Assembly (NCBI GenBank): GCA_026989035.1
Contig: JALSKB010000052.1
Location: 4,553 to 68,552, forward strand
From: Saprospiraceae bacterium
Lineage (GTDB): Bacteria; Bacteroidota; Bacteroidia; Chitinophagales; Saprospiraceae
Direction of reading: 5' to 3'
DNA: 64,000 bases
The notes beneath the pieces were generated by a model. It was not told the DNA's origin and ran no database searches. It saw only the letters and a program-made list of their open reading frames with translations. This document shows, piece after piece, positions 561 to 62,882 of the stretch (position 1 is its first letter; every line of letters begins with the position of its first letter). The position numbers and the translations under genes were made by a program.

Positions 561-3500
561 ATGGATTTCAGACGTACCAGGCAGATAAGTGCCGCGCTGG
601 TTTTCCTTATAGCGGGAAGCGTTTATTTCATGACAGCTCAGCGCACCGGTAGTTTATGGGACTGTGGCGAGTTTATTTCCGGAGCCTATAAATTGGAGGT
701 CGTACACCCTCCCGGTGCCCCCTTGTTTTTGCTCATAGGGCGCATGTTTACCGTCGTTGCAGAAGCGTTGAGCGACAATCCGGAAAGCATAGCTCTTTCG
801 GTGAATTTGCTTTCCGGCATTTCCACGGCTTTGGCTGCTATGTTCATTGCCTTGGTAACCATGTTGCTGGGTTCTCGGGCTTTGACCGGAGGCGATCGCG
901 AACCCGAAGCTGAAGAAAACATCGCTTTGGCTACTGCAGGTTTGGTTGCCGGCTTGTGCACGGCTTTTGCCACGTCTATTTGGTTTTCTGCTGTGGAAGG
1001 AGAAGTTTACGGCTTATCTACTTTCTTTACCACACTGACGCTGTGGGCCATGGTCAAATGGTACGTCTTGCCCGATGAGCCTCAATATGATCGCTGGTTG
1101 GTTTTCTCGATTTTTGCAGCGGGCCTCTCTATTGGCGTCCACCTTCTCAGTATTCTGACTTTCCCGGCTTTAGGCATCCTCTACTACCTCAAGCGTTACA
1201 AAACCCATACTCCCTTAGGCATGTTTCTGGGAGCAGCAGCCGGTGTTGTCGGTTTAGGCGTCTTTCTCAAACTCATCATTGTAGGTATCCCTAAGCTATG
1301 GGCCATGTTCGAATTGCCCATGGTTAATGGTATGGGTTTGCCGGTGCACAGTGGAATCCTGCCTGCGGCTTTGCTGATTTTTAGCTTCATTTACTGGGGC
1401 TTACGCAAAGCCCACCAAAAGAAAAGTAGAGAATGGCAACTTCTCTTTGTCAGCTTGGGCTTGATTGTTGTGGGCTTTTCTACCATAGGTACAGTCATTA
1501 TCAGAGCTAATGCCGTGCCGCCTATCAACATGAATCGTACCGACAACGTCATGCGGCTCATTCCCTACCTCAACAGAGAGCAGTACGGAGAACGCCCGCT
1601 GCTCTATGGGCCTTGGTACGGTGCACAACCCATTGGTCAAGAATTTGAAGACCGTTACGACTTGGTCAATGGTCGCTATGAAGTGGTTGACCAAAAAGTC
1701 TCTTACGTCTATGCGGCAAAAGACAAAATGCTCTTCCCGCGTATGGCTGACAATACGCAGGGACGACCGCGCTTGTACGAAATGTGGCGGGGAGGTAAAA
1801 AGGGAAAACCTACTCTTTTTGAAAACATTAGTTTTTTTCTGCGCTATCAATTGGGGTGGATGTATTGGCGTTACTTCATGTGGAATTTTGCCGGAAGGCA
1901 AAACGGCATTCAAGGCTTTTATCCCTGGGACCCTTCCCGGGGTCATTGGCTTTCCGGCATAAAGCCTTTAGATGAAGCACGACTTTACAATGAAGATGAA
2001 CTTCCGCAACAATTTAAAGACGATGCCGCCCGAGACAAATACTTCCTCGTTCCTTTTTTGTTAGGCTTACTGGGGCTTTTCTTTCACTTTAAACGCCGAC
2101 CCAAGGAGGCCATAGCTCTTTTTGTCCTCTTTTTTATGACGGGCATTGGCATCATCATTTACTCTAATCAACCCCCCAATGAACCCCGTGAGCGCGACTA
2201 TGTTCTGGCCGGTTCAATGTTCACCTATGCCATTTGGATAGGTATGGGTACTTTAGCACTCTTTTCTGCCTTTCGGCAAAAATGGAACCTTTCGGCAAAT
2301 GTTGCTGCAGTGCTGGCTTCCCTGATTACTTTGTCGGCTCCCCTACTCATGGGTACACAAAATTTTGACGAAAACAACCGCAGCCACATCAAAGCGCCTC
2401 GTGATTACGCCAAAAATTTCCTGGAGTCTTGTGCGCCCAATGCCATCATATTTACTTACGGGGATAACGACACTTATCCACTCTGGTATGCTCAGGAAGT
2501 GGAAGGCATAAGAACCGATGTGCGGGTTGTTAACCTCAGCCTCATAGCTGTAGATTGGTATATCGACCTGCTTCGGCGCAGAATTAATGATTCTCCGCCC
2601 TTAAAGCTCACTATACCTTCATCGGCCTATAGGGGAAGTAATCGAGTGGCTACTCCTTACTACAACCCCAGGCAGGGGGAGTCTTATGACCCCAAGCTGG
2701 ACATCGAGATGAATGCGCTGGAGGTACTGAGACATATTGCAAAGGATCAGATTCCTGCAGGTACTTCTTCTCGCCAGCCTAAAAGTTTTTTGCCCACTAA
2801 ACGGATGTATCTGGCTGTGGATGTACCCAAAGCTTTTGAGCGTGGCTGGGTGACGGAAGCGGATTCGGGAAAAGTAGTCAGTCGCATCCCCATCCGCATT
2901 AACAAAGACAAGCAATACCTCATCAAAGATGAATTGGCCATTTTGGATGTCATAGCGTCCAACATCAACGAACGCCCCATTTACTTCGCCGTTACCGGGC
3001 GTTCGGAGAAAATGTTTAATCTCCAGGACTACATGCAACTCGAAGGTTTGGCCTTGCGCATTGTACCCGTAAAAACCGAAATGAGCAATGATCGGCGCAT
3101 GTTTGGTAGTGTTTATGGTGCGGGGCGCGTAGCCCGCGACATAGTCTATCGCAATGCCATGGAAAAATTTGCCTGGGGCAATTTCGACAAAGAAAAGCTC
3201 TATGTAAATTATAGCTACGGGCCCAGCATACAGAGCTTCCACATCATGTTTCTGCGCACAGCTCAGGACTATCTCAAGCACGGAGACAAGGAAAAGGCTT
3301 TGGCTTTAGCCAAAAAATATCTGGAAGTTTTTCCCGACATGAACTTCCCTTATGATTATCGCACCATGCGTTTTTTGTCGCTCATGGTTGAGGCCGGAGC
3401 CTATGAAGAAACCAAGCCCCATTTAAAGAAGTTGGCCAACAGGTTGGAAAATATGCTGACCTTTTACTTCTCGTTGGATGATAGAGATTTGGAAGCCGGC

Positions 3501-3653
3501 TTTTCTCAAGACTTAGGTTTGACTTTGCGCACCAAAGATGATCTCGTGGCTTTGGTCAAAAAACAGGAAGATGATGCTTTTGCTACAGAACTGGAAAAAC
3601 AGTTTAAGGACTTTGATTTAGGAACAGGTGGTTTGCCACCTATGGGTAAATAA
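561..3653 (+). CDS. DUF2723-type polytopic membrane protein (PMT/GT-C-like glycosyltransferase family) with a large C-terminal soluble region
   Basis: The long ORF (513..3653 in the track) has multiple N-terminal hydrophobic helices. The N-terminal motif (TAQRTGSLWDCGEFISGAYKLEVVHPPGAPLF) is one I recall as typical of DUF2723 proteins. ATG 561 is chosen as the start. Confidence 0.8.
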   Translation: MDFRRTRQISAALVFLIAGSVYFMTAQRTGSLWDCGEFISGAYKLEVVHPPGAPLFLLIGRMFTVVAEALSDNPESIALSVNLLSGISTALAAMFIALVTMLLGSRALTGGDREPEAEENIALATAGLVAGLCTAFATSIWFSAVEGEVYGLSTFFTTLTLWAMVKWYVLPDEPQYDRWLVFSIFAAGLSIGVHLLSILTFPALGILYYLKRYKTHTPLGMFLGAAAGVVGLGVFLKLIIVGIPKLWAMFELPMVNGMGLPVHSGILPAALLIFSFIYWGLRKAHQKKSREWQLLFVSLGLIVVGFSTIGTVIIRANAVPPINMNRTDNVMRLIPYLNREQYGERPLLYGPWYGAQPIGQEFEDRYDLVNGRYEVVDQKVSYVYAAKDKMLFPRMADNTQGRPRLYEMWRGGKKGKPTLFENISFFLRYQLGWMYWRYFMWNFAGRQNGIQGFYPWDPSRGHWLSGIKPLDEARLYNEDELPQQFKDDAARDKYFLVPFLLGLLGLFFHFKRRPKEAIALFVLFFMTGIGIIIYSNQPPNEPRERDYVLAGSMFTYAIWIGMGTLALFSAFRQKWNLSANVAAVLASLITLSAPLLMGTQNFDENNRSHIKAPRDYAKNFLESCAPNAIIFTYGDNDTYPLWYAQEVEGIRTDVRVVNLSLIAVDWYIDLLRRRINDSPPLKLTIPSSAYRGSNRVATPYYNPRQGESYDPKLDIEMNALEVLRHIAKDQIPAGTSSRQPKSFLPTKRMYLAVDVPKAFERGWVTEADSGKVVSRIPIRINKDKQYLIKDELAILDVIASNINERPIYFAVTGRSEKMFNLQDYMQLEGLALRIVPVKTEMSNDRRMFGSVYGAGRVARDIVYRNAMEKFAWGNFDKEKLYVNYSYGPSIQSFHIMFLRTAQDYLKHGDKEKALALAKKYLEVFPDMNFPYDYRTMRFLSLMVEAGAYEETKPHLKKLANRLENMLTFYFSLDDRDLEAGFSQDLGLTLRTKDDLVALVKKQEDDAFATELEKQFKDFDLGTGGLPPMGK
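2268..2280 (+). repeat. GCCTTTCGGCAAA word copy
   Basis: Exact 13-mer inside the DUF2723 gene, read as codons A-F-R-Q. Confidence 0.9.
2288..2299 (+). repeat. GCCTTTCGGCAAA word copy (12/13, aCCTTTCGGCAAAT)
   Basis: Lies 7 nt after the previous copy in the same gene but in a different frame (L-S-A-N). Confidence 0.85.
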
Positions 3654-3660
3654 AATGACA

Positions 3661-4028: not shown

Positions 4029-4775
4029 ATGCTTATCAAAACCCGTGGCATCGTCTTACGCGCCTTTAAATACGGCGAAACCAGCATTATTGCCGATATT
4101 TTCACCGAAGAAAAGGGCTTGCAGTCTTATATCATTGGTGGGGTTAGGCGTAGCAAACCAAGATTTGCAGGAGCACTACTTCAAGTCGGCTCTATTCTGG
4201 ATATGGTTGTCTATTACAGCAACAAATCTAAACTACATCGCCCTCGTGAACTCCGGGCTGCCTATATCTATCACAGCTTACCATATCATTTGCCGAAAGG
4301 CTCCATAGCCCTCTTTGCCATGGAAATTGCCCGCAAATGTCTGCACGAACCGGAAAGTCAGCCTTTGCTCTTCCAATGGATGTATGAGTTTTTGATCTTT
4401 GTCGATCAAACGGAGCATTCTCTCCAGCTCTTACCCCATTACTTTCTGTGTCAATTTGCTGGGCATCTGGGCTTTGAAATGCAAAACAATTTTGGAACCG
4501 AGGCGCCTTTTTTCGATCTCCTTCATGGCCGATTTGTTCCCCTTCCTCCGGAAGAAGAACTTCAAGCCGGCTACTTTATTTTGGATGAAGATCAAAACAA
4601 GCTCTTGTCCTTCCTCCTTCACAGTAACTGGTACACACCCTCTCCCCAACCCCCTCCCTCTCCCGCCTTACGAGAAGGTTTGTTGAAAGAGTTGTTAGCC
4701 TATTACAGCTTGCACACCACGCCTTTTGGCCAAGTCAAAAGCCTGGACATTTTGCAAAAAGTGCTGAGGGGTTAA
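4029..4775 (+). CDS. recO: DNA repair protein RecO
   Basis: The N-terminus MLIKTRGIVLRAFKYGETSIIADIFTEEKGLQSY is the typical RecO OB-fold start, and the 248-aa length fits. Confidence 0.85.
   Translation: MLIKTRGIVLRAFKYGETSIIADIFTEEKGLQSYIIGGVRRSKPRFAGALLQVGSILDMVVYYSNKSKLHRPRELRAAYIYHSLPYHLPKGSIALFAMEIARKCLHEPESQPLLFQWMYEFLIFVDQTEHSLQLLPHYFLCQFAGHLGFEMQNNFGTEAPFFDLLHGRFVPLPPEEELQAGYFILDEDQNKLLSFLLHSNWYTPSPQPPPSPALREGLLKELLAYYSLHTTPFGQVKSLDILQKVLRG
4289..4301 (-). repeat. GCCTTTCGGCAAA word copy
   Basis: TTTGCCGAAAGGC on the + strand inside recO, read as L-P-K-G. Confidence 0.9.
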
Positions 4776-7402: not shown

Positions 7403-9853
7403 GTGCGTATTCTAAAATTCGGAGGTTCTTCGGTGAGTACTCCCGAACGGATGGAGCAGGTAAGTAGCATCTTGGTCGCTTATCATCAATCGGGCTTTTC
7501 TTTTGCCGTAGTATGCTCTGCTTTTGGGGGTGTTACCGATCAGCTCATTGAGTTGAGTCGTTTGGCGGAAGCCGGAAAAGAGCAGCAATATCTAAGCCTT
7601 TACGAGGGGTTTTGTGCTCGTCATGTTGAGGCTGCTGAAGTTTTATTGAAAGGAGAGATTCTCAAAAAGAGTAAAACAGCCTTAGAGGAAAATCATGAGA
7701 TTTTGAAGAATCTCTTATTGGGCATTTCCCTGGTTAAAGAGATTTCTCCTCGAACTTTGGATTACCTTCTCAGTTTTGGGGAACGCAATGCCAATTTTAT
7801 TTTAGCTGCCAGGTTGAAGCAGTTGGGTTTGCCCGCAGCATATACCGATGCTCGTCTCTTGATACAAACCAACTCTGACTTCGGCGGGGCCCTTGTCAAT
7901 TGGGAATACAGCAAAAAGCGCATTCGAGAGCATTTTGCGAAAGCACAAGGCATTCAAGTTGTTACCGGCTTTATCGCCGCCGATGAACAAGGCGTTACCA
8001 CGACCTTGGGGCGTGGAGGGTCGGATTATACGGCTTCGCTTCTGGCAGCTGCTTTGCAGGCTGAGCAGTTGGAAATCTGGACTGATGTCGCAGGTGTGCT
8101 TACTGCCGACCCCCGCAAAGTGAAGTCAGCTCTGCCTATTAAACAGCTATCTTATGCGGAAGCTATGGAAATGTCGCATTTTGGGGCTAAGGTCATTTAT
8201 CCGCCAACCATCCAGCCGGCTATGTCGGCGGGCATTCCCATATTCATCAAAAGCACTTTCGAACCCGACAAGGCGGGCACCCTAATTAGAGAGCAAAACC
8301 CGGTAGAAGAGCAAGCGGTAAAAGGTATCTCCTCCATAGACAACATCAGCTTGTTGACGCTTTCCGGTAGTGGACTAATCGGTGTACCCGGAACGGCTGC
8401 CCGACTTTTTGATGCCTTGGCCAAGGCAAGTATCAACGTCATACTCATCACGCAGGCATCTTCCGAACAGGCCATTAGCTTTGCCGTCATGCCGCAAGAG
8501 GCCGAAAAAGCTAGACAAGCCGTTGAGGAAGCTTTCCGGCTCGAGTTAAAAGCCGGTCTGGTAAAGCCTATCCGGCTGGAAAAGGACTTGGCTGTTGTGG
8601 CTATCGTCGGTGAAAACATGCGCTACCGCCCCGGAATAGCAGGGCAAATGTTTAGTACTTTGGGGCAAAACGGCATTAACGTCGTAGCTATTGCACAAGG
8701 TTCTTCAGAATTGAACATCTCTGCGGTTGTTCCTGCTAAAGATGAACGCAAAGCCCTCAATGCCTTGCACGAACGCTTCTTCCTGTCAGATATTCAAGTG
8801 CGTCATCTGTTTGTCGTAGGGACGGGCCTGGTAGGAAGCACCCTGCTTCGACAAATTCTGGAACAAAATGCTTTTTTGAAAAAATACAAAAAATTAGAAA
8901 TACGCGTAGTTGGCATAGCCAACAGCCGGAAGATGTTTTTTAAGCAAGAGGGAATAGACTTAGAGCAGTGGCAAGAGCGCTTGTCTGCGGGGGAAAACAT
9001 GGAGCTATCGACTTTCGTCAAACGAATGAAAGCACTAAATTTGCGCAATTCCGTCTTTGTTGACAATACAGCTACAGAAGAGGTGCCACGCTGCTATGCC
9101 GAAATTTTGGACAGCAGCATTTTCATCTCTACGCCCAATAAAACAGCAGCCTCCGGGCCTTACAAAACCTATATAGAACTCAAGCAAATTGCTGAAAAAC
9201 GCAATGTTGCCTGGATGTTTGAAACCAATGTAGGAGCCGGGCTGCCGGTTATTGATACGCTAAACGACTTGATCAACAGTGGAGATCGCATTCTCAGTAT
9301 CGAGGGCGTGCTTTCAGGCTCTATGTCTTTTATCTTTCACGCTTTTCAACAGGGCATGGCTTTCAGTCAGGCCGTATTTAAAGCCAGGAAATTGGGTTAT
9401 ACCGAGCCGGACCCTCGCGATGATTTGAGCGGAAAAGACATGTTGCGAAAAATTTTGATTCTGGCCAGAGAAGCGGGATATGCCCTGGAACAAAAAGACG
9501 TGTCCGTTAGTCCTATCCTTCCAAAAGAATTTTGGGAAATACCTGAGGTGGACGATTTTCTCAAGCGGTTGCCGGAGGTTGACCAACTTTTTGATGGCCT
9601 TCGCCAACAGGCATCTGCTTCGGGCAAGGTTTTGAGGCCTATTGCCCGCTTTGATGCCAGTGAACAAAAAGCTTCCGTTTCTTTAGAAGAAATTAGTGCG
9701 CAACACCCTTTTTTCACCCTAAGTCCGGGAGACAACATCATTGCTTTTAGAACGGACCGTTATGCAGAACGGCCCTTGGTCGTTTACGGACCCGGAGCCG
9801 GAGCAGAAGTGACGGCAGCTGGGGTGTTTGCGGAAATTATCAATTTGGGTTAA
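7403..9853 (+). CDS. thrA: Bifunctional aspartate kinase / homoserine dehydrogenase I
   Basis: 816 aa. The start (M)RILKFGGSSV is the kinase signature, ACT-like regions sit in the middle, and the C-terminal half is a homoserine dehydrogenase (GAGLPVIDTL). Confidence 0.95.
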   Translation: MRILKFGGSSVSTPERMEQVSSILVAYHQSGFSFAVVCSAFGGVTDQLIELSRLAEAGKEQQYLSLYEGFCARHVEAAEVLLKGEILKKSKTALEENHEILKNLLLGISLVKEISPRTLDYLLSFGERNANFILAARLKQLGLPAAYTDARLLIQTNSDFGGALVNWEYSKKRIREHFAKAQGIQVVTGFIAADEQGVTTTLGRGGSDYTASLLAAALQAEQLEIWTDVAGVLTADPRKVKSALPIKQLSYAEAMEMSHFGAKVIYPPTIQPAMSAGIPIFIKSTFEPDKAGTLIREQNPVEEQAVKGISSIDNISLLTLSGSGLIGVPGTAARLFDALAKASINVILITQASSEQAISFAVMPQEAEKARQAVEEAFRLELKAGLVKPIRLEKDLAVVAIVGENMRYRPGIAGQMFSTLGQNGINVVAIAQGSSELNISAVVPAKDERKALNALHERFFLSDIQVRHLFVVGTGLVGSTLLRQILEQNAFLKKYKKLEIRVVGIANSRKMFFKQEGIDLEQWQERLSAGENMELSTFVKRMKALNLRNSVFVDNTATEEVPRCYAEILDSSIFISTPNKTAASGPYKTYIELKQIAEKRNVAWMFETNVGAGLPVIDTLNDLINSGDRILSIEGVLSGSMSFIFHAFQQGMAFSQAVFKARKLGYTEPDPRDDLSGKDMLRKILILAREAGYALEQKDVSVSPILPKEFWEIPEVDDFLKRLPEVDQLFDGLRQQASASGKVLRPIARFDASEQKASVSLEEISAQHPFFTLSPGDNIIAFRTDRYAERPLVVYGPGAGAEVTAAGVFAEIINLG

Positions 9854-10884: not shown

Positions 10885-13044
10885 TTAAAGATTTTCTACA
10901 AAATACATTTTTTGCACGCCTTTGTTTTTGGCTTTTATTTCTCCTCTGGGCATAGCGTGGAAGTGATCTTTGACCAAAAGCCATGTTGTGTGTGAAATGT
11001 TTACTTTGCCTGGCTCTCCCGAAGACTCCATACGAGCTGCGAGATTGACGGTATCACCCCAAATGTCGTAAGCAAATTTTTTGTGACCTACCACCCCTGC
11101 TACGACGGGGCCGGTATGTATGCCTATGCGAATTTCAAAAGCCGGTAGTCCTTGCGCTTTTTGCCTTTCGGCAAATGTTTTGACGAAGTCGCGCATAGCC
11201 AAACCAGCCCGGACAATTCGCTCGGCATGGTCGGGTATGGGTTCGGGCAGGCCGGCTGCACACATGTACGCATCACCTATGGTTTTGATTTTTTCTACAC
11301 CAAAGCGTTCAGTGATTTCATCAAAGGCACTGAAACATTCGTCTAGCATGGCGACCAAGTCTGCAGGAGAGAGACGTTCGGCTATTTGGGTGAAAGATTT
11401 AAAGTCGGTGAAAAGGACACTTACTTGTTCGTATTGTCGGGCTTGCGTTTTTCCCGTTTCCTTTAGCTCCCGTGCCACTTCTTCGGGCAGAATGTTTAGC
11501 AGCAATTCTTCAGACCGTTGGCGCTCTTGCTCAATAATGGCGTTTTTTTCTGCCAATTGGCGATTGGCTCTGGCTTTCAAACGGTAGCGATTGACCAACA
11601 AGCCGATGATGAGCAGGAGGATGATGGCACCGGCGAGAAAAGTGATGAGCATGCTGCGTGCGCGCTCTTGTTGTAGCAGCAATTCTTGGCGTTGGCGTTC
11701 AATTTCGTATTGCTTGAGCCGGTCTCCATAGAGGATTTCCCGACGTTCGTTATCTCGGATTTTTTTTTCGTTGAGGCGTTGGTATTTCAAACGGTCATAG
11801 GCTCTGCGGTATTCGTAGGCCTTTTTGTACAGTCCGAGCAAGTAATAAATTTTTCCGAGGTCTTTGTAGGCGTTTTGGCGGTATTTGGGGTCGTCGAGTT
11901 CTTCGGCCAGGGACAAATATTTTTGGACGTAAACGAGAGCGGAGTCAAGTTGCCCTTTTCTGCGATGGACGTCTCCCATGCCGTTGTAAATGGCCATGAT
12001 ACCTTTTTTGTTTTCATAGGTTTTCCAAATTTTTAGGGCCGGTTGAAAGAATTGTAGTGCTGTATCCCATTTGGCGAAAGCCTGATCTTTGTCTCCTTTT
12101 TTTAACAAGTAACTACCCAGATTTTTGTAGGTGAGGCCTATGTTGTTGTAAATCTCTGCCATGCCCTCCTCGTCCTCTTCGCTTTGTCTGATGTTGAGGG
12201 CTTCCCGATATAGCTTCAAAGCTTTTTGTGAGCGTTTTTGTGCGGCAGTGAGATTGCCGCTTTCGTAGAGTGAATCTGCCCGGGCATCTTCGGCATTAGC
12301 CAAGTTGTTGAGTGCATCGGCAAGCTCTCTCGGAGCTCCCCGTTCGCGATAAATTTGAAGTGCGCGGCTGTAGTTTTCTGCAGCTTCACTGAAGCGATCC
12401 AGTTCCAGTTTGATGTTACCTATGACGAGGTAGGCATTGGCCAGATCTGTTTTTTCATGGGGCAAAAGTGCAATTAGCTCGAGATATTTAAAGATGTAGT
12501 TGAGCGCTTCCGAGTAAAGCCCCATGCTTTCGTACAGTATGCTGATGTTGTAATATAGGCGAGCTACCCGCAAGCTATCACCCAGTTGTTTGCGAATACG
12601 TAGAGAGTTTTGGTAGTAATCCAGAGCTTGGACATAGTCTCCTCGATATTCCTCTACATTGCCCAGGTTGTTGTAAAGAGAAGCCACTCCGGCGCTGTCG
12701 CCTAGTTCGCGGCGTATGTTTAAGGCAGCTTGAAAGTATTGTACTGTTTCATCGGCTTGCCCGTGGATGTCTTCCACTACGCCGCGATAATTCAAAGCAT
12801 CTCCTTCGCCCTTTTTGAAGTTAATGCGTTGTGCCAGGTATAGAGCCGAATCGAGAAAAAGACGGGCTGAATCAGGCGAATCAAACTTTAAGGTCCAACC
12901 CAGTTCATTGAGCAAGTTAACCCGCTGTGTATCGCTTTGTACCGCCTCCAATTCTCTTAACAGGCTATCTGCTCTGGTTTGCTGGGCAAGCAAGGGGCCC
13001 AAAGTGCAGAGAAGGAGTACGAATAATGGTGCGACTTTTTTCAT
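10885..13044 (-). CDS. TPR-repeat / single-TM / class III adenylate-guanylate cyclase signalling protein
   Basis: Signal peptide, about 10 TPR-like repeats, a coiled-coil, one TM helix, and a C-terminal cyclase domain (VSVLFTDFKSFT ... GDAYMCAAGLP ... IGIHTGPVVAGVVG). Confidence 0.85.
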   Translation of the reverse strand: MKKVAPLFVLLLCTLGPLLAQQTRADSLLRELEAVQSDTQRVNLLNELGWTLKFDSPDSARLFLDSALYLAQRINFKKGEGDALNYRGVVEDIHGQADETVQYFQAALNIRRELGDSAGVASLYNNLGNVEEYRGDYVQALDYYQNSLRIRKQLGDSLRVARLYYNISILYESMGLYSEALNYIFKYLELIALLPHEKTDLANAYLVIGNIKLELDRFSEAAENYSRALQIYRERGAPRELADALNNLANAEDARADSLYESGNLTAAQKRSQKALKLYREALNIRQSEEDEEGMAEIYNNIGLTYKNLGSYLLKKGDKDQAFAKWDTALQFFQPALKIWKTYENKKGIMAIYNGMGDVHRRKGQLDSALVYVQKYLSLAEELDDPKYRQNAYKDLGKIYYLLGLYKKAYEYRRAYDRLKYQRLNEKKIRDNERREILYGDRLKQYEIERQRQELLLQQERARSMLITFLAGAIILLLIIGLLVNRYRLKARANRQLAEKNAIIEQERQRSEELLLNILPEEVARELKETGKTQARQYEQVSVLFTDFKSFTQIAERLSPADLVAMLDECFSAFDEITERFGVEKIKTIGDAYMCAAGLPEPIPDHAERIVRAGLAMRDFVKTFAERQKAQGLPAFEIRIGIHTGPVVAGVVGHKKFAYDIWGDTVNLAARMESSGEPGKVNISHTTWLLVKDHFHAMPRGEIKAKNKGVQKMYFVENL
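11163..11175 (+). repeat. GCCTTTCGGCAAA word copy
   Basis: Exact 13-mer (full 16-mer TTTGCCTTTCGGCAAA from 11160). In the minus-strand cyclase gene it reads F-A-E-R-Q. Confidence 0.9.
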
Positions 13045-34879: not shown

Positions 34880-34887
34880 TATATTTG
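34880..34887 (+). promoter_or_regulatory. Bacteroidota-type -7 promoter box
   Basis: TATATTTG lies 29 nt upstream of ATG 34916. It is fused to a copy of the TTTGCCGAAAGGC word. Confidence 0.45.
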
Positions 34888-34896
34888 CCGAAAGGC
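34884..34896 (-). repeat. GCCTTTCGGCAAA word copy (intergenic)
   Basis: TTTGCCGAAAGGC on the + strand, overlapping the -7 box. Confidence 0.9.
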
Positions 34897-43580: not shown

Positions 43581-43593
43581 GCCTTTCGGCAAA
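43581..43593 (+). repeat. GCCTTTCGGCAAA word copy (intergenic)
   Basis: Exact 13-mer between divergent genes. Confidence 0.9.
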
Positions 43594-46662: not shown

Positions 46663-47616
46663 TCAGGGTGTTTCAAACGAAAGATAGGGCTTGAGCTTTT
46701 CCAGTTCAGCTTCGGAGAAAACACCCGTGTTGGACAAATCCTCTATCTTTGAAAAAGGCCCGTATCGCTTTCGGTAAGCGAGCAAAACTTCCGCCTGCTT
46801 TTTCGACACATACGGATGTCGGCTCAATATTTCTGCGGAAGCTTGATTAAGCAGCAAGGGGTGAACAGGACTTTTTTTCTGCAAAAAAGGTTTGATTTTT
46901 TGAAAAACGGAATCGGGTAAGCCGTAGGTCTCTGCAATCTGATCCACTTCCTTAAAACCTCCTAAAGCCTCCCTGAATCGAAGAATTCGACCGGCATAGT
47001 AAGGCCCTATCCCCGGCAAAGCGTCCCAGTCGGCTTGTGAAGCCAAGTTGATGTCTATAGTTTTTATATCCGGCTTGTCAAGGGTTTCAACAGGCGCAGC
47101 ATCCCGCGTTTTTTGATTTGCCACCAAAACAGAAGCTCCTCCTTTTTGTTCTTCGACAAATCGAATATAAGGACGTAAGCGTTGATAAAATTCGGGCTTC
47201 ATCCCATAGACCTTCAGCAAATCCTCCGCGCGGCTGAAATGCGCTCCACTATGGCGAAAGCGAATCAATGTGCGCGCTAAACTGCCGGAAAAACCCAGTT
47301 GAAGGAGTTCTTCCCGGCTTGCCTTATTGGGGTCAAAGGGGAAGAGCTTAACAGCAGAAGGGCTCTGGTCTTCTTTATCGATCTGCTGCTCTTTTCTTTC
47401 ACTAGCGATTTGTTGGCCTTTCGGCAAATGCCGTTTTGCTTCCCACAGCGCTAAAGCCCGGTCCAGCTTGCTGAAGTCCGTGCGAGGAGCCGGTGTGAAA
47501 ACGTCCAGTCGCGGTAATAAAAAAGACAAAATAAGGAGCAAACTCAGTATCCAAGTGCCATAACGCTCTGAACGGGTGAAATAAAAAAAGTCTTTCCACT
47601 TGTTCCGCTTTTTCAT
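46663..47616 (-). CDS. Helix-hairpin-helix repeat protein (ComEA-like DNA-binding)
   Basis: N-terminal TM helix and several HhH units (NKASREELLQL; INLASQADWDALPGIGPYYAGRI; LNQASAEILSRHPYVSKKQAEVLL). The stop is 4 nt from the comEC start. Confidence 0.7.
   Translation of the reverse strand: MKKRNKWKDFFYFTRSERYGTWILSLLLILSFLLPRLDVFTPAPRTDFSKLDRALALWEAKRHLPKGQQIASERKEQQIDKEDQSPSAVKLFPFDPNKASREELLQLGFSGSLARTLIRFRHSGAHFSRAEDLLKVYGMKPEFYQRLRPYIRFVEEQKGGASVLVANQKTRDAAPVETLDKPDIKTIDINLASQADWDALPGIGPYYAGRILRFREALGGFKEVDQIAETYGLPDSVFQKIKPFLQKKSPVHPLLLNQASAEILSRHPYVSKKQAEVLLAYRKRYGPFSKIEDLSNTGVFSEAELEKLKPYLSFETP
47416..47428 (+). repeat. GCCTTTCGGCAAA word copy
   Basis: Exact 13-mer. In the minus-strand ComEA-like gene it reads L-P-K-G. 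Confidence 0.9.
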
Positions 47617-52564: not shown

Positions 52565-52593
52565 AAGGGAGAATTGCCGGGACAAGAAAACTG

Positions 52594-53604: not shown

Positions 53605-53615
53605 GTCTGACCTTT

Positions 53616-53960: not shown

Positions 53961-53962
53961 TT

Positions 53963-56938
53963 TCAGGGTTCTATGGTGTCACATTCGTACAACAAATGAT
54001 GTTCCGGTTTTGGTTTTTGTACCGGTTGGCCTTTTTTCTTGGCTTCAAGCATTTTTTGAATGAGCCGGGTGCGCTCTTGATGTATCCATGCTCTTCTCTC
54101 TTTATCTTTTTCGCGATCGAAGAACAAGATACCGTCCACCCAGGTTTTTTGTGCGACGGCATAAACGGATAAGGGGTCATCGTTCCACAGCACCAGGTCG
54201 GCATCCTTGCCTACTTTGATGCTGCCGATGCGGTCATCTACGTGTAAAAGCCGTGCAGGATTGAGCGTCACAAATTTTAGGGCTTCCTCTTTCGGTGCAC
54301 CTCCGTATTTGATAGCTTTGGCAGCTTCTTGATTAAGACGGCGCCCCATCTCGGCATCGTCCGAATTGTACGCCACCACTAAGCCGGCTTTGTACATCAA
54401 AGCTCCGTTATAGGGAATGGCGTCAATGACTTCATACTTGTAAGTCCACCAATCCGAAAAAGTCGAAGCTCCTGCTCCATGTGCCCGCATCTTATCCGCA
54501 ACCTTATAGCCTTCTAAAATATGGGTAAAGGTGTTGACTTTAAACCCATGTCGCTCTGCAACCCTCATCAACATGACAATTTCGCTTTGGCGGTAAGAAT
54601 GACAGGTGATAAAGCGCTTGTGTTGCAAAATTTCCAACAAGGCTTCCAGTTCCAAGTCTTTGCGATAAGGTTTGCCCGATGTTTTGAGCCGGCCATATTC
54701 CTCTGCTCGGGTAAAGTAATCCTCAAAGACCTGCTCTACGCCCATACGCGTTTGGGGGAACCTGATGCGAAACTGATCACCCCAATTGGACTGTTTTACA
54801 TTTTCACCCAGAGCGAATTTAATAAAACCGTCGGCACCTTTGAATTTCATTTCCTCCGGTGCATAGCCCCAGCGCATTTTAATCAATTGCGTTTGGCCTC
54901 CAATGGGGTTGGCAGAGCCGTGCAAGAGATGAGAGCTCGTTACGCCGCCGGCCAATTGCCTATAGATGTTGATGTCTTCGGAATTGACCACATCGCCTAT
55001 ACGCACTTCTGCCGAGCTGGCTTGTGTGCCTTCGTTTACACCCCTGCTGATGGCAATGTGCGAGTGTTCATCGACGATACCCGGAGTCAAATGCATGCCC
55101 GTCGCATCAATAACTACGGCATCGCCCTCGGCTAAACCTTGACCTATTTGAACGATTTTGCCATCTGCTATAAGTACATCGGTATGCTCCAAAACGCCCT
55201 CTTTTTCACAGGTCCATACGGTTGCATTGCGTATCAAGTATTTTTTTTGTTTGGGTGGCTCTGTCCATCCATAAGCTGTGAAAGGATACATCAGCGGGCC
55301 GGGTTCTTCAATTTTTGCCACCTCCTTTTTCTCTTCTTTTTTCTGCCTTTCGGCAAATGTTTTCCCGGAGGGCAGGGCCTCCCAGTCCGTTTTTTCACCT
55401 TGAGGCCCCTCTGCATAACCAGCCCAATGTTCTCTGCTCAAGTGCCCGCTCAACCTCCAAAAGCCGTGCCCTTTTTCCTGCTCAAAACGCATACTCAACA
55501 AGCCTTTGTCAAAATTCAACTTGACATCTATCTTGCTGGAATCGGGCAGGAGCAAATGAGCTTTGTGCTTTCCGTTTTTGCTTTTCACATACAAGTCATA
55601 ATCTTTTTCACCGAGCAAAAGGTGATAAACTCCGCTGAGGTCGGCTTGCTCCAAATCTTCATACAGTACGGCTTGTCCGTGCACCCACACTTGGCGAATG
55701 CTCGTTCCGTCTTCGAAAATGTTTCCCGATGTGATAAAGAAATTGGCCACTTTACCAGCCTCTAAACTGCCAAGGCGGTCAAACAGCCCCAGGAGTTTAG
55801 CCGGCCTTTCGGTGAGTGCGCGGAGGGCTTCATTTGCCGAAAGGCCATGAGAAACGGCCTTCCTCAAGGCGGGCAAAAAATCTTTCATTTGAGATAAGCC
55901 GTGGGCTGTTAAGACAAAGGGAATACCTGCCTCTGCTACGCGAGCCGGATTGTAAGGCGCCCACTCCCAATGCTTCATCTGAGCTAAAGATACCTGGCGA
56001 GCGTTGAGCGGGTCTTCCACATCATAGGCCTTGGGAAAATCCAGAGGAAGGATGAGTGGGTTACCGGTAGCTTTGATTTCTTCCAACCTTTGGTAAGTGT
56101 CTCCATTTGATGCAATGAGATACGTTTTTCCAAATTCCTTACCTAATCGGGCGGCACGCAAGACGTTGAGCTTGTTTCCCGCGACAAAAATTTGTGGCAA
56201 ATTTTGCAATTCATTCCAGGCCTCCAAAGAAAGGTTGGTTTCTTCTTTATGTCCTTCTTTGGCATACCACTGCCCGTCTAAATAAGTTTGCCGCAGCAGG
56301 GCTATACTGCCCATGAGTGATGACGGATAGCTTTGCGTCGATTTGCCTTTGTCGAAAGACAAAACATGGGCAGCACGGGGTTTTAACAGTAGTTCATGTT
56401 CTTTTTCTTTTCCTATGAGTACAAAAGCGGCGCTGCCGCGCGAAATACCATCCGGCCGATGTACCAAAGCAGCGCCAAAACCGGATTTCCACAAATCAGG
56501 AGCTTTTTTGTTGTCGGAGACAAAGTGTTCTGCAGCATCGAATTCCGTTTTCAAGGCTTCGTTCCAGGCAAAAGCTCCTTTCTTGTTGCTGAGCATCTGG
56601 GGTTGAAGACGGGAGGCTTTCCCTTCCGCCTTGGGGGCAGGCATGCCGTAGTCGGAGTACAAATCGATAAAAGCCGGGTAAATGAAATAGCCGTGGGCAT
56701 CTATGACAACAGCATCATCAGGTACGGCAACGCCCTGGCCCACTTGCACAACTTTCCCTTTGCGCACGAGTAAAGTGGCATTTTCCAAGACCTTATCGGG
56801 GGTTTGATAAATGGTGGCATTGACAAAGGCATAAGAACCTTCCCGTGGATCCGAGACGCCATTGTACGGGAAAGTTTTTTGAGCTGACAAGCCAAAAGAG
56901 CACAAAAACAAAAACAAAACTGTGCCAATCTTTTTCAT
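53963..56938 (-). CDS. Secreted double amidohydrolase-domain protein (metal-dependent hydrolase superfamily)
   Basis: Signal peptide at ATG 56938. Two amidohydrolase-like halves are present (second: PGIVDEHSHIA; C-terminal GSIKVGKDADLVLW). Confidence 0.75.
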   Translation of the reverse strand: MKKIGTVLFLFLCSFGLSAQKTFPYNGVSDPREGSYAFVNATIYQTPDKVLENATLLVRKGKVVQVGQGVAVPDDAVVIDAHGYFIYPAFIDLYSDYGMPAPKAEGKASRLQPQMLSNKKGAFAWNEALKTEFDAAEHFVSDNKKAPDLWKSGFGAALVHRPDGISRGSAAFVLIGKEKEHELLLKPRAAHVLSFDKGKSTQSYPSSLMGSIALLRQTYLDGQWYAKEGHKEETNLSLEAWNELQNLPQIFVAGNKLNVLRAARLGKEFGKTYLIASNGDTYQRLEEIKATGNPLILPLDFPKAYDVEDPLNARQVSLAQMKHWEWAPYNPARVAEAGIPFVLTAHGLSQMKDFLPALRKAVSHGLSANEALRALTERPAKLLGLFDRLGSLEAGKVANFFITSGNIFEDGTSIRQVWVHGQAVLYEDLEQADLSGVYHLLLGEKDYDLYVKSKNGKHKAHLLLPDSSKIDVKLNFDKGLLSMRFEQEKGHGFWRLSGHLSREHWAGYAEGPQGEKTDWEALPSGKTFAERQKKEEKKEVAKIEEPGPLMYPFTAYGWTEPPKQKKYLIRNATVWTCEKEGVLEHTDVLIADGKIVQIGQGLAEGDAVVIDATGMHLTPGIVDEHSHIAISRGVNEGTQASSAEVRIGDVVNSEDINIYRQLAGGVTSSHLLHGSANPIGGQTQLIKMRWGYAPEEMKFKGADGFIKFALGENVKQSNWGDQFRIRFPQTRMGVEQVFEDYFTRAEEYGRLKTSGKPYRKDLELEALLEILQHKRFITCHSYRQSEIVMLMRVAERHGFKVNTFTHILEGYKVADKMRAHGAGASTFSDWWTYKYEVIDAIPYNGALMYKAGLVVAYNSDDAEMGRRLNQEAAKAIKYGGAPKEEALKFVTLNPARLLHVDDRIGSIKVGKDADLVLWNDDPLSVYAVAQKTWVDGILFFDREKDKERRAWIHQERTRLIQKMLEAKKKGQPVQKPKPEHHLLYECDTIEP
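55345..55357 (+). repeat. GCCTTTCGGCAAA word copy
   Basis: Exact 13-mer. In the minus-strand amidohydrolase gene it reads F-A-E-R-Q. Confidence 0.9.
55833..55845 (-). repeat. GCCTTTCGGCAAA word copy
   Basis: TTTGCCGAAAGGC on the + strand. In the same minus-strand gene it reads L-S-A-N. Confidence 0.9.
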
Positions 56939-56993: not shown

Positions 56994-59900
56994 CTATTCT
57001 CCTCCCACATTCAAGGGTTCAAAAACGCCTGTGGGTGAAAGTTGTAAGGCGGAAAAAGCCTCACTGAATTTTTTCCAATCGGTTTCAAAAAAGCTGTTCA
57101 CCTCTTCCAAATAAGAGCGAATCCGGGTTTTGGTCGCTTCTGCTCGTTCTATGAGGGTGGGTGAGGGACCTGCCGTGGCCGGATTGGGCTCTCCGGCAGG
57201 ATTGAAATAGGTGCCGGTTTCGTAAATTTCACTGATGAGCAAATCGGGGTCCCGATAAATGCCTTGGATATCCTTTGGCGGAAAGACTTCTTCACGCAGC
57301 TGTTTTAATTTCTTTTTTATGCGTTTGCTCATGTCTTGCATAGCCGCCTTATTTTTCTTGTCTTTAACTTGTTCTTCGACCAGTTTCATGCTGTTGTCCA
57401 AGTATTTTTTGGCTTCGTCCAGTTGATTGACGGCTTCCGCCAAAGCCTCTACGTACTGGCCAAATTCGTCTTGATAACTGTAAAGCGCTTTGACACCTTC
57501 TACATCTACCTCAAGTCGGGGGTCGGGGTGGACCTGCACTTTGGTGAAATCTTCAAACTTTCCGTACTTGATTTTGATGGTGTACTCACCCGGAGGGACG
57601 AAATGCCCTTGAGGAGGCGTATCTCCGTCTTTGGGGCGGTTGCTGCCCGGAAAGCGAAAGCCATCAGCCCGCAAATTCCAGGAAAAGCGGTTAAAGCCCT
57701 TTTGCACCTTGGTTTTAAAGTGGCGTAATGCCCGCCCTCCTTCATCTAAAACGACAACTTGTGCCGTATCTACTTTCAGGGGTTTACCCTCCTTGTCTTT
57801 GTTGAGAATTTCGGCAACGGAAAAAGTGATGAGAGCGCCATAGGGTCTATTTTGCCCCCTAAAGTAGGCATTTCCGGTGAATCGGGTTCCGGCGCCCTGT
57901 TTGTAGTTGGCTAACCAGGCATCGGAAGCGGGATAAACGAAAAGCGGTTTGCGCAAGAGCGAGCTACCCAGTTGGGCCAACCCTCGCAAATAGCGTATGT
58001 CGTCAAACACATAGACTGCTCGTCCAAAAGTGCCTACAACCAAATCTTGTTCGCGTGGGTGCAACACCATGTCCATGGTGGAAACAGAAGGGTATCCGCG
58101 TGTCCATTTGGTCCAGTTTTGCCCTTCGTCAATGCTGAAGTAAAGCCCCTGCTCCGTTCCGAGAAAGAGCAGACGCGGTTCATGTCTGTCCTGAACGAAA
58201 GAAAGGCAATAGCCCTCTATTTGGTGGGGCCAGGCCAAACGCTCCCAGCTTTTGCCAAAATTGCGGGTGCGATACAAATACGGTGCCCAATCATTTCGGC
58301 GATAATTGTTGGCGATCACATAGGCCTCTCCGGATTTGTAGCGCGTGGCGTGAATTTGCGTTATCCAGGAGCCTTTCGGCAAATCGGGTATGTTGGAAGA
58401 GACATTGGTCCAGGTCCGGCCACCGTCTTGGGTTACTTGTACTTGACCGTCATCGGTACCCACCCAGATGACGTCTCTGGTTCGAGGGCTGGGGGATATG
58501 GTGGTAATGGTACAGTAGTTTTCCGCACCGGTAACGTCGTAGGTCAAACCGCCACTTTCCTTTTGGCGCAACTTGGAAGGGTCGTTGGTCGTCAAGTCGG
58601 GAGAAATAATTTGCCAAGAGCGGCCGCCATCTGTGGTTTTGTGTAAAAACTGACTGCCGAAGAAAATGGTGTTGGGCTCTAAGGGGCTTTGAGCTATGGC
58701 CGCATTCCAATTGAAGCGCAAACGCACTTTGCCTTTGAGGTAGGGTTTTACCCAGGTTTTTGCACCCGTCTCCAAGTCGGTGCGGAACAGGCTGCCTCCC
58801 TGCCACATTAGCCAGGCATAACGAGGGTTTTCTCGCTCTACCACCACATCAAAACCGTCGCCAAAGCCGATTTCCTGCCAGTAGGCATTGCGAATACCTC
58901 CTACTTGCCAGACCTGAGAAGGTCCTCTCCAAGTGCCGTTGTCTTGCATGCCACCGTAAATGTTGTAAGGCGTATCCAAATCAACGGTAATGTGATAAAA
59001 CTGGCCTACCGGCAAATTCTCCACAAAACGCCAGGTTTTCCCTCTGTCTCGAGAAATAGCCAAGCCGCCATCATTGCCGTCAATCAGGTAATCGGGATCG
59101 TCGGGATGTATCCACCAATAGTGGTGATCACCGTGGATGTTGTCCCAGCCGAGTAAGGTGGTAAAGGTCTTTCCTCCGTCTTCACTGACACTGACGTTGG
59201 AATAAATGTTGTAAAGGCGGTTTTCATTGCGGGGGTCCACGGCGATGTCGGCGTAGTAAAAGGGCCGATCGCCGATGTTGCGGTCAGCACGCTTTTTCCA
59301 GGTAAAGCCGCCATCTTCAGATCTGTATAGCGCGGTCTTTTTGGCCTCTACCAAGGCATAGACAATCTTGGGGTTAGACGGCGCTATGGCTATGCCGATT
59401 TTGCCGAGCTGGCCTTCCGGCAAACCGTCTTTAGCGCTGCGTTTGGTCCAGGTATCCCCTCCATCTAAGGTTACGTATAAGCCGGAGCCATCACCTCCTG
59501 ATTCAAAAAACCATGGCCAACGTCGATACTCCCACATGTTGACGAAAATTTTATTGGGGTTTTCGGGATCCATATCCATGTCGGCTGCACCGGTTCTCGT
59601 GTTCACAAAGAGCACCTTTTCCCAGCTCTTTCCTCCGTCTTGCGTGCGATACACTCCCCGTTCATAGGTGTCGCCCCAAGCTGTACCTAAGGCGGCGACA
59701 AAGACCACATCGGGATTGCGAGGGTCGATGAGAATGCGGTGGATGTTACGGGTTTTATCCAGCCCCATGTATTGCCAGGTTCTACCGCCATCTATGCTCT
59801 TAAAAACTCCGGCTCCACTGCTCATGCTGTTTCTGGGGTTGCCTTCGCCCGTCCCCACCCAAATAATGTCGGGGTTGTCTTGCTGAACCGCTACGGCCCC

Positions 59901-61548: not shown

Positions 61549-61652
61549 TTTACTGCTCGGTACTTTGTTGGGGCGAAGTTTTTCTATCTTCGCTCTTTCT
61601 TAAGAAGGGCAGGCGCTGCCTTTTGCCTATTTCTTCCCCCAAAGATAACCAA

Positions 61653-62882
61653 ATGAGCTTTACGGAGGACACAAAAAGCTATGATTTGGCCATTATAGGA
61701 GCCGGTATTGTCGGCTTAGCTACAACTTGGCAGATTTTGCGCCGGCGTTCGGGTTTACGCGTAGTCGTTTTGGACAAAGAAACGAAGCCTGCTGCTCACC
61801 AAAGCTCACACAACAGCGGGGTGCTGCACTCCGGTATTTATTACAGACCAGGCGGCAGCAAAGCCAAAAACTGCTTGAGGGGCCATGCCTTGATGGTGGA
61901 ATTTTGTCGTACTTACGGTCTGCCTTTTGATTTGTGTGGCAAGGTCATTGTAGCTACCAGAGAAGAGGAAAGGCCCCGTCTTCACGCCATTTATCAGCGA
62001 GGTTTGACCCATGGTCTTCGGGGCATTCGCTTGTTGTCTGCAGCCGAAGTAAAAGAGAAAGAGCCTCATGTGGAGGCTTTGGAGGGGATTTGGGTTCCTC
62101 AGGCCGGTATTGTAAATTATGCCGATGTGGCTAAGAAGCTGGTTGAATTGATTGAGAAGCTGGGGGGCGAAATTCGGGGAGGTTTTTCTTTGCGAGCCGT
62201 ATTTGCCGAAAGGCAAAAGAAGCCTTTGCGCCTTCAAGCCCGAAACGGTGCAGAATTGACAAGCCGTTATCTCATTACGGCAGCAGGTTTATATGCAGAT
62301 AAAGTAGCTCGCATGACCGGCGTGCATCCTCCGTTGAAAATCATTCCTTTTCGAGGAGAGTATTACCGGTTGCGCAGAGAGAAAGAGTATTTGGTCAATA
62401 ACCTCATTTATCCCGTGCCCAATCCGGCCTTTCCCTTTTTGGGCGTGCATTATACGCGTCGGATTGGCGGAGGTATAGAAGCCGGGCCCAATGCCGTTCT
62501 GGCTTTTGCTCGGGAGGGGTACAGCCGTTGGACAGTGCGGCCTGTAGAATTGGCAGAAACGCTGAGCTATAAAGGTTTTTTGCGCCTTGCGGCAAAATAT
62601 TGGAGGGTCGGCCTGGACGAGTTGCACCGTTCTTATTCAAAAAAGGCCTTTGTACATGCTTTGCAACATCTGATTCCGGAGGTGGGGGTAGAAGATTTGG
62701 AGCGAGGTGGTGCGGGCGTGCGGGCGCAAGCCATAGCTCCCGATGGGAGCATGGTTAACGAGTTTGTCATTGTCGAGCAGGAGCGGGTCATTCACGTGTT
62801 AAATGCCCCCTCTCCAGCGGCTACTTCCGCCCTTTCCATCGGTATGGACGTAGCTGACAGATTCTTTGTTAAAATGCAGTGA
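61653..62882 (+). CDS. lhgO: L-2-hydroxyglutarate oxidase/dehydrogenase (FAD-dependent)
   Basis: [14 protein letters not shown] dinucleotide fold, [14 protein letters not shown], and C-terminal NAPSPAATS, as in LhgO. Confidence 0.8.
62202..62214 (-). repeat. GCCTTTCGGCAAA word copy
   Basis: TTTGCCGAAAGGCAAA on the + strand in lhgO, read as F-A-E-R-Q. Confidence 0.9.

Follow-up and report, generated by a model that had tools for sequence, protein, structure and literature searches.

A hyper-abundant DNA word family with a covarying three-base-pair stem in part of the Saprospiraceae

Genes and word sites in the window

The stretch analysed here (hereafter the window) comprises 64,000 nucleotides of contig JALSKB010000052.1, from a metagenome-assembled Saprospiraceae bacterium (assembly GCA_026989035.1), and is 99.97% identical to GCA_054026355.1; its homologues likewise bear the name Saprospiraceae. 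Scattered through its genes is a short word, GCCTTTCGGCAAA, with the stem GCC..GGC, present in 15 exact copies, nine on the + strand and six on the − strand. An earlier note on this DNA had listed 14 copies; it overlooked 15536(−), and the positions it gave are correct except that 36245 should read 36244. By k-mer counting we found a second, stem-swapped word, GGCTTTCGCCAAA, in five copies (12070−, 16100−, 18271+, 45072− and 63582+). We refer to the two as GCC-type and GGC-type. Together with their variants they form a family with the consensus GSC-TTTC-GSC-AAAT(G), or (C)ATTT-GSC-GNAA-GSC on the opposite strand, which is covered by the degenerate pattern GSCTTNCGSCAAAT and has a density of about one member per 2–3 kb. 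Inside open reading frames (ORFs) lie 26 of the 29 family members, including 13 of the 15 exact GCCTTTCGGCAAA copies, which are spread over 11 ORFs with unrelated Pfam domains; the earlier note had likewise placed 13 copies in unrelated genes, 10 by its count.

In the first third of the window, several of the sites can be followed into the related loci L198, L199 and L201. A TMEM260-like transferase gene carries the GCC-type copy at 2268..2280(+), in sense and read as AFRQK; this is the only exact GCCTTTCGGCAAA copy without a following T, the next base being A. Nineteen nucleotides further on is the one-mismatch copy ACCTTTCGGCAAAT at 2287..2299(+), given previously as 2288, which has a G.T outer pair on the GAAA strand. 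The two make a tandem pair within one gene (2268-2300, GCCTTTCGGCAAAAATGGAACCTTTCGGCAAATG), the second copy having A for the first G. The recO gene holds an antisense copy (4289..4301, −; HLPKG) found at the same place in L198. A TPR-adenylate cyclase gene has an antisense GCC-type copy (11163..11175, +; FAERQ), kept in L198, and a sense GGC-type copy (12070..12082, −; QAFAK), identical in L198. Both types also occur in an OmpA/PD40 gene, where the GCC-type copy (15536..15548, −; sense, AFRQM) has two mismatches in L198, and the GGC-type copy (16100..16112, −; GFRQM) is identical in L198, L199 and L201 although flanking synonymous sites differ. An FMO-like oxidoreductase gene has an antisense GGC-type copy (18271..18283, +; FGESH) that is identical in L198, and a DUF4837 gene an antisense GCC-type copy (20032..20044, +; DLPKG) whose loop is TTCC in the three relatives, a change from GAAA to GGAA on the hairpin strand and from K to E in the protein.

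Further along, a gene for a 1685-aa C25 peptidase contains two GCC-type copies, one in sense (28062..28074, +; SLSAN) and one antisense (29888..29900, −; FAERQ), and the same arrangement of one copy each way is seen in an amidohydrolase gene (55345..55357, +, antisense, FAERQ; 55833..55845, −, sense, GLSAN). Antisense GCC-type copies are also found in a BNR/sortilin-like gene (58371..58383, +; DLPKG) and a DAO oxidoreductase gene (62202..62214, −; FAERQ). The copy at 36244..36256(+) lies at the 5' edge of an ORF (36186-37094) whose start codon is uncertain. Two GCC-type copies are intergenic, one about 20 nt upstream of a 3-HAO gene (34884..34896, −) and one between divergent genes (43581..43593, +), and a GGC-type copy is located near the window end (63582..63594, +).

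Two adjacent genes on the − strand, recognized as in the earlier note and by matches at the domain level only, encode a ComEC-family protein (44722-46659) and a ComEA-like protein (46663-47616), and each carries one word copy. The ComEC-family gene has a GGC-type copy in sense (45072..45084, −; GFRQM) and the ComEA-like gene a GCC-type copy in antisense (47416..47428, +; HLPKG). The ComEC-family protein (645 aa) has DUF4131 and Competence domains without the C-terminal metallo-beta-lactamase nuclease domain, and the ComEA-like protein (317 aa) has three tandem helix-hairpin-helix repeats (HHH_3) against the usual single DNA-binding module.

One-mismatch variants cluster at a single loop position, TTTC changing to TTCC or TTGC, which is the N of GNAA. 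The form GCCTTCCGGCAAA, with GGAA on the hairpin strand, occurs at 1887..1899(−), 28704..28716(+), 34418..34430(+) and 59412..59424(+), and GCCTTGCGGCAAA occurs at 62584..62596(+); these are the five variants that had been listed before, and all are present. To them we add GGCTTCCGCCAAA at 7561..7573(−), in an aspartokinase-homoserine dehydrogenase gene and kept in L198, and at 57432..57444(+), as well as GGCTTGCGCCAAA, with GCAA on the hairpin strand, at 37229..37241(−). The 1887 site is part of a 16-nt palindrome with perfect 6-bp arms, TTTGCCGGAAGGCAAA (1887-1902). The TTCC/GGAA variants mostly lack the T after AAA (A at 28704, 34418 and 62584; C at 59412), so they may represent a slightly different subclass.

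Abundance, nucleotide-level conservation and distribution

The abundance of the family far exceeds chance, as the earlier note had argued. The expected number of GCCTTTCGGCAAA copies was 0.04 in dinucleotide-preserving shuffles of the window and 0.01–0.05 under Markov models of order 1 to 5 over 64 kb, and the 14-mer form was expected 0.00 times in 100 third-order Markov simulations, an enrichment of more than 300-fold. The word and its sub-words are the commonest 9- to 16-mers of the window. The base following GCCTTTCGGCAAA is T in 14 of the 15 copies, continuing as TG in nine, both as noted before, and the base following GGCTTTCGCCAAA is T in all five. Perfect 14-mers outnumber one-mismatch copies 14 to 2 in the window; the two-mismatch class numbers 13 against 1.5 expected and consists mainly of the compensatory swap and loop-plus-tail variants. 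The 15 and five exact copies are oriented 11+ to 9− in this one 64-kb window, an apparent balance like that of the DNA uptake sequences (DUS) and uptake signal sequences (USS) of other bacteria.

Listing the flanks, counting bases by position and searching for repeats all showed that the sequence shared among copies ends at about 15–20 nt, and the absence of common sequence outside these bases indicates that the GCCTTTCGGCAAA copies did not derive from a longer element. Three copies (2268, 43581 and 55345, and also 36244) have an extended form of 19 nt, TTTTCTGCCTTTCGGCAAA, in common. A T-rich upstream side characterizes the GCC-type copies of this genome; it is seen neither in the GGC-type copies nor in other Saprospiraceae.

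The way in which the word is read in genes points to conservation of nucleotides. The word has no stop codon in any of its six frames, and the genes use four to five of them, giving the peptides AFRQ, LSAN, LPKG and FAERQ that the earlier note had reported in both orientations relative to the gene. The peptides AFRQ, GFRQ, LSAN, FAER and LPKG are about 10 times more frequent than amino-acid composition predicts, and 17 of 18 family-peptide occurrences use the word's exact codons. These impose minor codons on the proteins: CGG (15% of Arg), AGG (8%), TCG (10% of Ser) and CTT (13% of Leu). In OmpA/PD40, GFRQM occurs only in the word-bearing clade, and distant homologues have [YF]L[ET]Y[VL] there. 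The conserving force therefore acts on nucleotides, against protein and codon preferences, and the earlier claim of conservation at the DNA level holds on the evidence of frames, of minor codons and of orthologous sites kept despite synonymous divergence. We also considered a role at the mRNA level and rejected it because the ratio of sense to antisense copies is 8:10; among known RNA genes, the window gave no Rfam or tRNA matches.

Comparison with relatives revealed how the copies come and go. Synteny between the window and L198 extends over about 17 kb, and codon identity among identical residues is 55%, meaning that synonymous sites have diverged heavily. In 11 aligned orthologous genes, seven of eight window sites are nevertheless kept in L198 with 0–1 change per 14 nt, four of them identical. 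Across four genomes some sites are common to all, such as 16100 with its synonymously changed flanking codons, and others occur in some of the genomes, the rest having near-matches of graded quality (for example GGCTTTCGCCAAAT / GGCTTTCACCCAAC / GAATCTCTCCAAAC); a further example of graded decay is GGCTTTCGCCAAAC against AGTTTTTGCCAAAC. The loop of the 20032 site differs between genomes (GAAA or GGAA) at the cost of the K-to-E change. We found no indels at orthologous word sites in the four genomes. Copies arise and decay by point substitution inside ordinary genes.

The family is clade-specific and confined to part of the Saprospiraceae, so the phylum Bacteroidota, in which the earlier note had framed it, is too broad a scope. 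The three closest relatives, whose OmpA/PD40 proteins are 84%, 72% and 69% identical to that of the window, are as dense in the word as the window itself, with 10 family members in 22 kb, eight in 10.7 kb and four in 6.7 kb, and no mixed types. We scanned one genome per species with the query GCCTTTCGGCAAAT, bearing in mind that the taxon labels of metagenome-assembled genomes (MAGs) may include mis-binned sequences. The matches listed comprised at least 116 loci, about 27 of them in Saprospiraceae/Saprospirales MAGs with GC contents of 35–62%, several Saprospiraceae MAGs being matched two or three times, and loci with two or more family members were almost all from Saprospiraceae. The swapped word, which was not used as a query, occurred five times in 154 kb of 24 Saprospiraceae loci vs once in 679 kb of other taxa, again among the matches listed. 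Three MAG loci labelled as other taxa have two family members each within 8 kb: L025 (Armatimonadota), L034 (Cryomorphaceae) and L065 (Flavobacteriaceae, Lake Baikal). These are either mis-binned contigs or further word-bearing lineages.

Around E2 homologues (57–69% identity), 80 metagenome loci of related Bacteroidota totalling 1.04 Mb contained 1 + 1 copies and no alternative 'dialect' word. Carriage by phages was rejected, as viral contigs gave only single background-level matches, and none of the loci in 1.05 Mb had more than one family member. In the literature we found no description of the word, its complement or its swapped form, nor of uptake sequences in Bacteroidota or Saprospiraceae. 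Across the window and the relatives examined, none of the outcomes that the earlier note had named as counting against its proposal was observed: the frequency is not at the Markov level, the copies do not share long flanks, and conservation is not of peptides only.

Apart from the word, the window contains intergenic repeats of about 115 nt that form a family of their own, with the consensus TATACTCATGGCGAAGTGGTTTGGGAGGCGTTAGCTTCCCAAACTCCCTATCTTTT..TCGTTTGCGAGTCGTAAATATCCCAAACCATTTCGGTTTGGGTATA and two hairpins, and without an Rfam match. Its copies lie at 338-400(−), 21980-22046, 24569-24671, 25899-26040, 38255-38290, 41009-41120, 44600-44640, 49461-49572 and 50199-50312. It looks like an element resembling repetitive extragenic palindromic (REP) sequences or miniature inverted-repeat transposable elements (MITEs), or a small-RNA family. 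Most of its copies fall in three stretches, at 20–28, 36–44 and 47–55 kb, across which the word is scarce, exact GCCTTTCGGCAAA being absent from 20045-28061, 36257-43580 and 47429-55344. These stretches have a lower GC content (0.43–0.46) and several ORFs without Pfam matches, and synteny with L198 breaks within one of them, at about 21.7–22 kb. The three word-poor stretches of 7–8 kb may be younger or accessory DNA.

Stem pairing and the match to DNA mini-hairpins

The exact copies in the window divide into 15 with the stem GCC..GGC and five with GGC..GCC, and the non-complementary mixes GCCTTTCGCCAAA and GGCTTTCGGCAAA are absent from it (0/20). We assembled 99 distinct sites from the window, the three close relatives and 24 other Saprospiraceae loci, with a search pattern in which the middle pair and one loop base were free and the outer and closing pairs were fixed; as the pattern itself sets the latter two pairs, so that all 99 sites close with C-G, we take evidence of pairing from the middle pair alone. 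This pair is C-G in 64 sites, G-C in 27, A-T in five, T-A in one, G.T in one and mismatched in one, and is thus Watson-Crick in 97 of 99. Double-sided changes of the middle pair number 33, compared with 9.5 in column shuffles, and none of 500 shuffles reached this value. A search with the closing pair left free gave C-G there in 36 of 37 and in 35 of 35 sites. The loops on the hairpin strand over the 99 sites are GAAA, GGAA, GCAA and GTAA. A stem swap can be seen at one orthologous position: the degenerate site GGCCTTCGCCAACA at 9596..9609(+) has GGC..GCC, and its counterpart in L198, GCCTTGCGGCAAAA, has GCC..GGC with the middle pair swapped, one of the two changes being non-synonymous.

These features coincide with published rules for ultra-stable DNA mini-hairpins, in which a GAAA (or GBAA) loop is closed by a C-G pair (Kimoto and Hirao, PMC13037366). 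The GNNA loop contains a sheared G-A pair, and the second pair may be G-C or C-G, so that both GCGAAAGC and CCGAAAGG form; stems GC..GC or CC..GG are allowed, and CG..CG and GG..CC do not form (PMC13037366). On the opposite strand, the GGC type has the core GCGAAAGC and the GCC type the core CCGAAAGG, each with one additional G-C pair, the oligonucleotide forms of the hairpin strand being d(CATTTGCCGAAAGGC) and d(CATTTGGCGAAAGCC). The family follows the mini-hairpin (GCGNNAGC / CCGNNAGG) rules in its C-G closing pair, its G-C/C-G second pair and its GNNA loop. Mini-hairpins melt at 65–89 °C as DNA vs 39 °C as RNA, and in vitro they are bound poorly by single-stranded DNA-binding protein (SSB) and resist exonucleases (PMC13037366). 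The GGC-type 10-mer, GGCGAAAGCC, is contained in the phage G4-origin oligonucleotide CGGCGAAAGCCG, which has a melting temperature of 89 °C and weak SSB binding, and mini-hairpins also occur at ssiA and N4 promoter sites (PMC13037366).

Mini-hairpin sequences are below expectation in natural DNA (PMC13037366). In the window, GCGAAAGC and CCGAAAGG occur almost exclusively within ATTTG-core-C, and generic cores that lack ATTT-G...C show no enrichment, the tri-loop cores being if anything depleted (GCGAAGC, five vs 10 expected; CCGAAGG, four vs 10.6); equally stable GABA loops are likewise not enriched. Because the mini-hairpin per se is not enriched and the cores are nearly confined to this context, the sequence of the word suggests a specific recognition site with a mini-hairpin at its centre.

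Nearest-neighbour DNA folding gives the family −3 to −6 kcal/mol, and the mixed control GGC..GGC is poorly separated at −4.0 kcal/mol, which it reaches through outer TTT/AAA pairs. Since these energies fail to separate the control, we do not use them as evidence; standard folding parameters underestimate mini-hairpin stability (PMC13037366). The earlier description of the word as a hairpin stands, without the proposed extension to a 6-bp stem TTTGCC/GGCAAA: TTT:AAA pairing is just 38–48% A-T, and we rejected it as a requirement.

Possible functions and relation to known systems

What the window and its relatives contain is a hyper-abundant, substitution-built DNA word family, constrained at the level of nucleotides and of structure, that keeps a 3-bp stem. 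We tentatively favour, as a plausible reading that we would stop short of calling probable, that it is a 'self' signal akin to DUS, USS and HIP1 (highly iterated palindrome 1), which would be kept by transformation-linked drive and read on single-stranded DNA. The other intragenic hyper-abundant words that are known serve, or are proposed to serve, as signals in transformation: DUS and USS (PMC1939737, PMC2817400), and now also HIP1 (bioRxiv 10.64898/2026.06.24.733823). Fragments with the word would be favoured at some step of natural transformation or of homologous exchange between relatives, and recombination would re-install perfect copies, a molecular drive as opposed to site-by-site selection. 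The favoured step would probably read single-stranded DNA, such as the strand entering via ComEC or one processed for RecA/DprA loading; on that strand the GAAA side would fold into the mini-hairpin, and the conserved ATTT tail could serve as a sequence handle for a protein.

Three lines of reasoning suggest this reading. Perfect 14-mers are kept every 2–3 kb despite codon preferences and saturated synonymous divergence, which argues for a systematic bias and not for tiny per-site benefits. A duplex binder that tolerated either base would accept mixed forms, so the absence of mixes suggests that a folded single strand is read. The balanced orientation is consistent with the entry of one or the other strand of a fragment into a cell. 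Owing to the stem covariation and the mini-hairpin match, however, the family is not simply to be filed as DUS or USS, and the earlier comparison with DUS and HIP1 holds for the excess, the intragenic frames and the lineage restriction, but not for the stem covariation, which is unlike DUS, or for the lack of a palindrome, which is unlike HIP1.

Several points weigh against a transformation-linked signal. We know of no competence or uptake bias in Saprospiraceae, and no pilus or receptor gene was seen within the 64-kb window. ComEC and ComEA-like genes are near-universal and hence weak evidence, and here they are domain-level matches. Four other Saprospiraceae lineages (83 kb) lack the word, and the word-bearing genomes examined amount to about 170 kb. 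Its spacing in the window is no more even than random (coefficient of variation 0.79 vs 0.96 for random placement, P = 0.18), so regular spacing of the HIP1 or USS kind was rejected. For the 3-bp hairpin in vivo we argue from in-vitro data on related oligonucleotides. The analogy with DUS is also incomplete, as DUS and USS have no base-pair covariation and DUS is read double-stranded.

The family could also be the first 'self' word of a genome to be recognized in the form of a folded single strand, a possibility to which we give some weight while doubting it; it might then act through transformation or recombination drive or as SSB-excluding chromosome punctuation. If true, this would set it apart from DUS, USS, HIP1, Chi and REP, none of which is known to be recognized in that way. 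The base-pair constraint on a hyper-abundant word is not present in DUS or USS. Hyper-abundant intragenic words occur in very few lineages (Neisseriaceae, Pasteurellaceae and cyanobacteria), and in each of these they gave insight into how bacteria distinguish foreign DNA from their own when they exchange genes. To our knowledge, no uptake specificity has been known in the phylum Bacteroidota, and a Saprospiraceae case would extend the phenomenon to that phylum and to uncultured environmental bacteria. The covariation and the identity with mini-hairpin cores predict that compensated stem mutants will work and broken ones fail, and that the ligand will be single-stranded hairpin oligonucleotides. 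The word could also be used to mark native vs acquired DNA in these MAGs, which could help binning, and could enhance transformation if genetic tools are developed for these bacteria.

The strongest alternative, unlikely in our judgement, is an intracellular signal on single-stranded DNA that is selected site by site and is unrelated to uptake, with mini-hairpins excluding SSB on unwound DNA. Such a signal could provide a landing site for primase or replication restart, as proposed for the G4 origin and ssiA, an exonuclease stop at resected ends, or a site of RecFOR/RecA nucleation. The covarying stem and GNAA loop that obey mini-hairpin rules would be expected of it, as would the stability of many sites at orthologous positions across the four genomes, and GGCGAAAGCC inside the G4-origin CGGCGAAAGCCG, with the mini-hairpins at ssiA and N4 promoters, supplies precedents. 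Priming, Chi-like and KOPS-like signals are normally strand-biased, however, and here orientation is 11:9 in a window whose GC skew shows no sign of an origin or terminus. The benefit per site would also have to exceed the amino-acid cost at ~1000 sites, the classic load argument made against selection for DUS and USS, which we apply here by inference. Generic cores outside ATTT-G...C are not enriched (GCGAAGC, 5 vs 10; CCGAAGG, 4 vs 10.6), and most Saprospiraceae and other Bacteroidota manage without the word.

The remaining explanations fit progressively worse. A double-stranded site for an abundant protein, either a nucleoid-associated protein or, on the model of HIP1, a methyltransferase with a bias in repair, would treat the two stem versions simply as two accepted sequences, and we regard it as improbable. 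HIP1 is a precedent for a methylase site becoming hyper-abundant, the invariant G, C, TTTC, G, C and AAAT resemble a protein footprint, and GCC-N4-GGC has the shape of an interrupted palindromic site; independent tolerance of C or G nevertheless predicts mixed forms, which number 0 of 20 in the window, with two of 99 sites non-Watson-Crick overall. The loop and AAAT tail are asymmetric, so the site is no palindrome, and its 14 specified bases far exceed known methylase or very-short-patch repair sites.

Less probable still is a mutational or repair bias without any reader, the words being by-products of quasi-palindrome template switching or hairpin-specific correction. Complementary arms are the expected outcome of template switching in a quasi-palindrome, and sites do grow and decay by point changes, but the process leaves the fixed loop, the outer and closing pairs and the AAAT tail unexplained, and it would have to work on very short arms of three bases. 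Enrichment is not seen for other hairpins, and the sites are conserved across saturating synonymous divergence.

That the words are miniature mobile elements like REP/RAYT or MITEs we consider very improbable. The HUH (Y1) transposase of such an element would recognize a hairpin and a 5' tetranucleotide, and ATTT plus hairpin is formally like the GTAG plus palindrome of REPs, but 26 of the 29 members are in ORFs and show neither insertion nor deletion against their orthologues. The copies have only about 15 nt in common, the window contains no transposase or RAYT gene, and its true intergenic repeat is the different, 115-nt family described above. We give almost no credence to chance or to a common peptide motif conserved in its residues or codons, and exclude both: although the same peptide is kept in orthologues at some sites, the copies use four to five frames on both strands of unrelated proteins, the peptides are nearly always in the word's codons, two copies are intergenic, and the chance expectation is at most 0.05.

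Among known systems, the DUS of Neisseriaceae (AT-GCCGTCTGAA and its dialects, with the receptor ComP) is similar in being 12–14 nt long and over-represented hundreds to thousands of times, in occurring inside genes in both orientations and within one family of bacteria, and in having perfect copies far above one-mismatch copies. It is also found in genome-maintenance genes, and here recO, comEC and the comEA-like gene have one copy each. Unlike our word, DUS is not a hairpin by itself, lacks covariation and is read by a pilin as double-stranded DNA; it is mostly intergenic, often as inverted pairs at terminators, whereas 13 of 15 copies here are in ORFs and none are paired, and each species has one dialect, whereas two stem versions share one genome here. 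The USS of Pasteurellaceae (a AAGTGCGGT core with AT-rich flanks) is similar in being mostly intragenic and stable at orthologous positions among relatives. Its density is about 1 per 1.2 kb, the word here being sparser. USS uses several frames and imposes peptides on proteins (PMC2817400) and has no orientation bias (PMC1939737); it differs in having no stem-loop or covariation and in belonging to another phylum.

The cyanobacterial HIP1 (GCGATCGC) is similarly hyper-abundant, conserved and tolerant of coding regions, but it is a true 8-bp palindrome and methylase site, whereas the word here is 14–15 nt long, has an asymmetric loop and tail, and is structure-constrained. REPs and bacterial interspersed mosaic elements with RAYT are abundant hairpin-forming repeats with a conserved 5' tetranucleotide; they are extragenic palindromes of 20–40 nt that spread as units, in contrast to our 14-nt, intragenic, substitution-built words, and no RAYT was seen in the window. 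Chi and the KOPS/SRS motifs are over-represented chromosomal words too, and Chi is read as single-stranded DNA, but they are 5–8 nt long, modestly enriched and strongly skewed with replication, unlike a 14-nt word enriched more than 300-fold and oriented 11:9 in one window.

The DNA mini-hairpins described by Hirao (GCGNNAGC / CCGAAAGG; G4 origin, ssiA and N4 promoters) have cores identical to those of the family. The invariant C-G closing pair is the same, the covarying pair is the allowed swap, and the loop variants belong to the tolerated GBAA class. In nature they are known as solitary sites, in the origins and promoters of phages or plasmids, whereas here the context ATTT-G..C is enriched hundreds of times across chromosomal genes. 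The family thus lacks the defining features of HIP1, REP/RAYT and Chi/KOPS and, as judged from its sequence, conforms to the rules of DNA mini-hairpins, while matching the genomic behaviour of DUS and USS on every feature testable, an analogy from which a role in uptake may be suggested.

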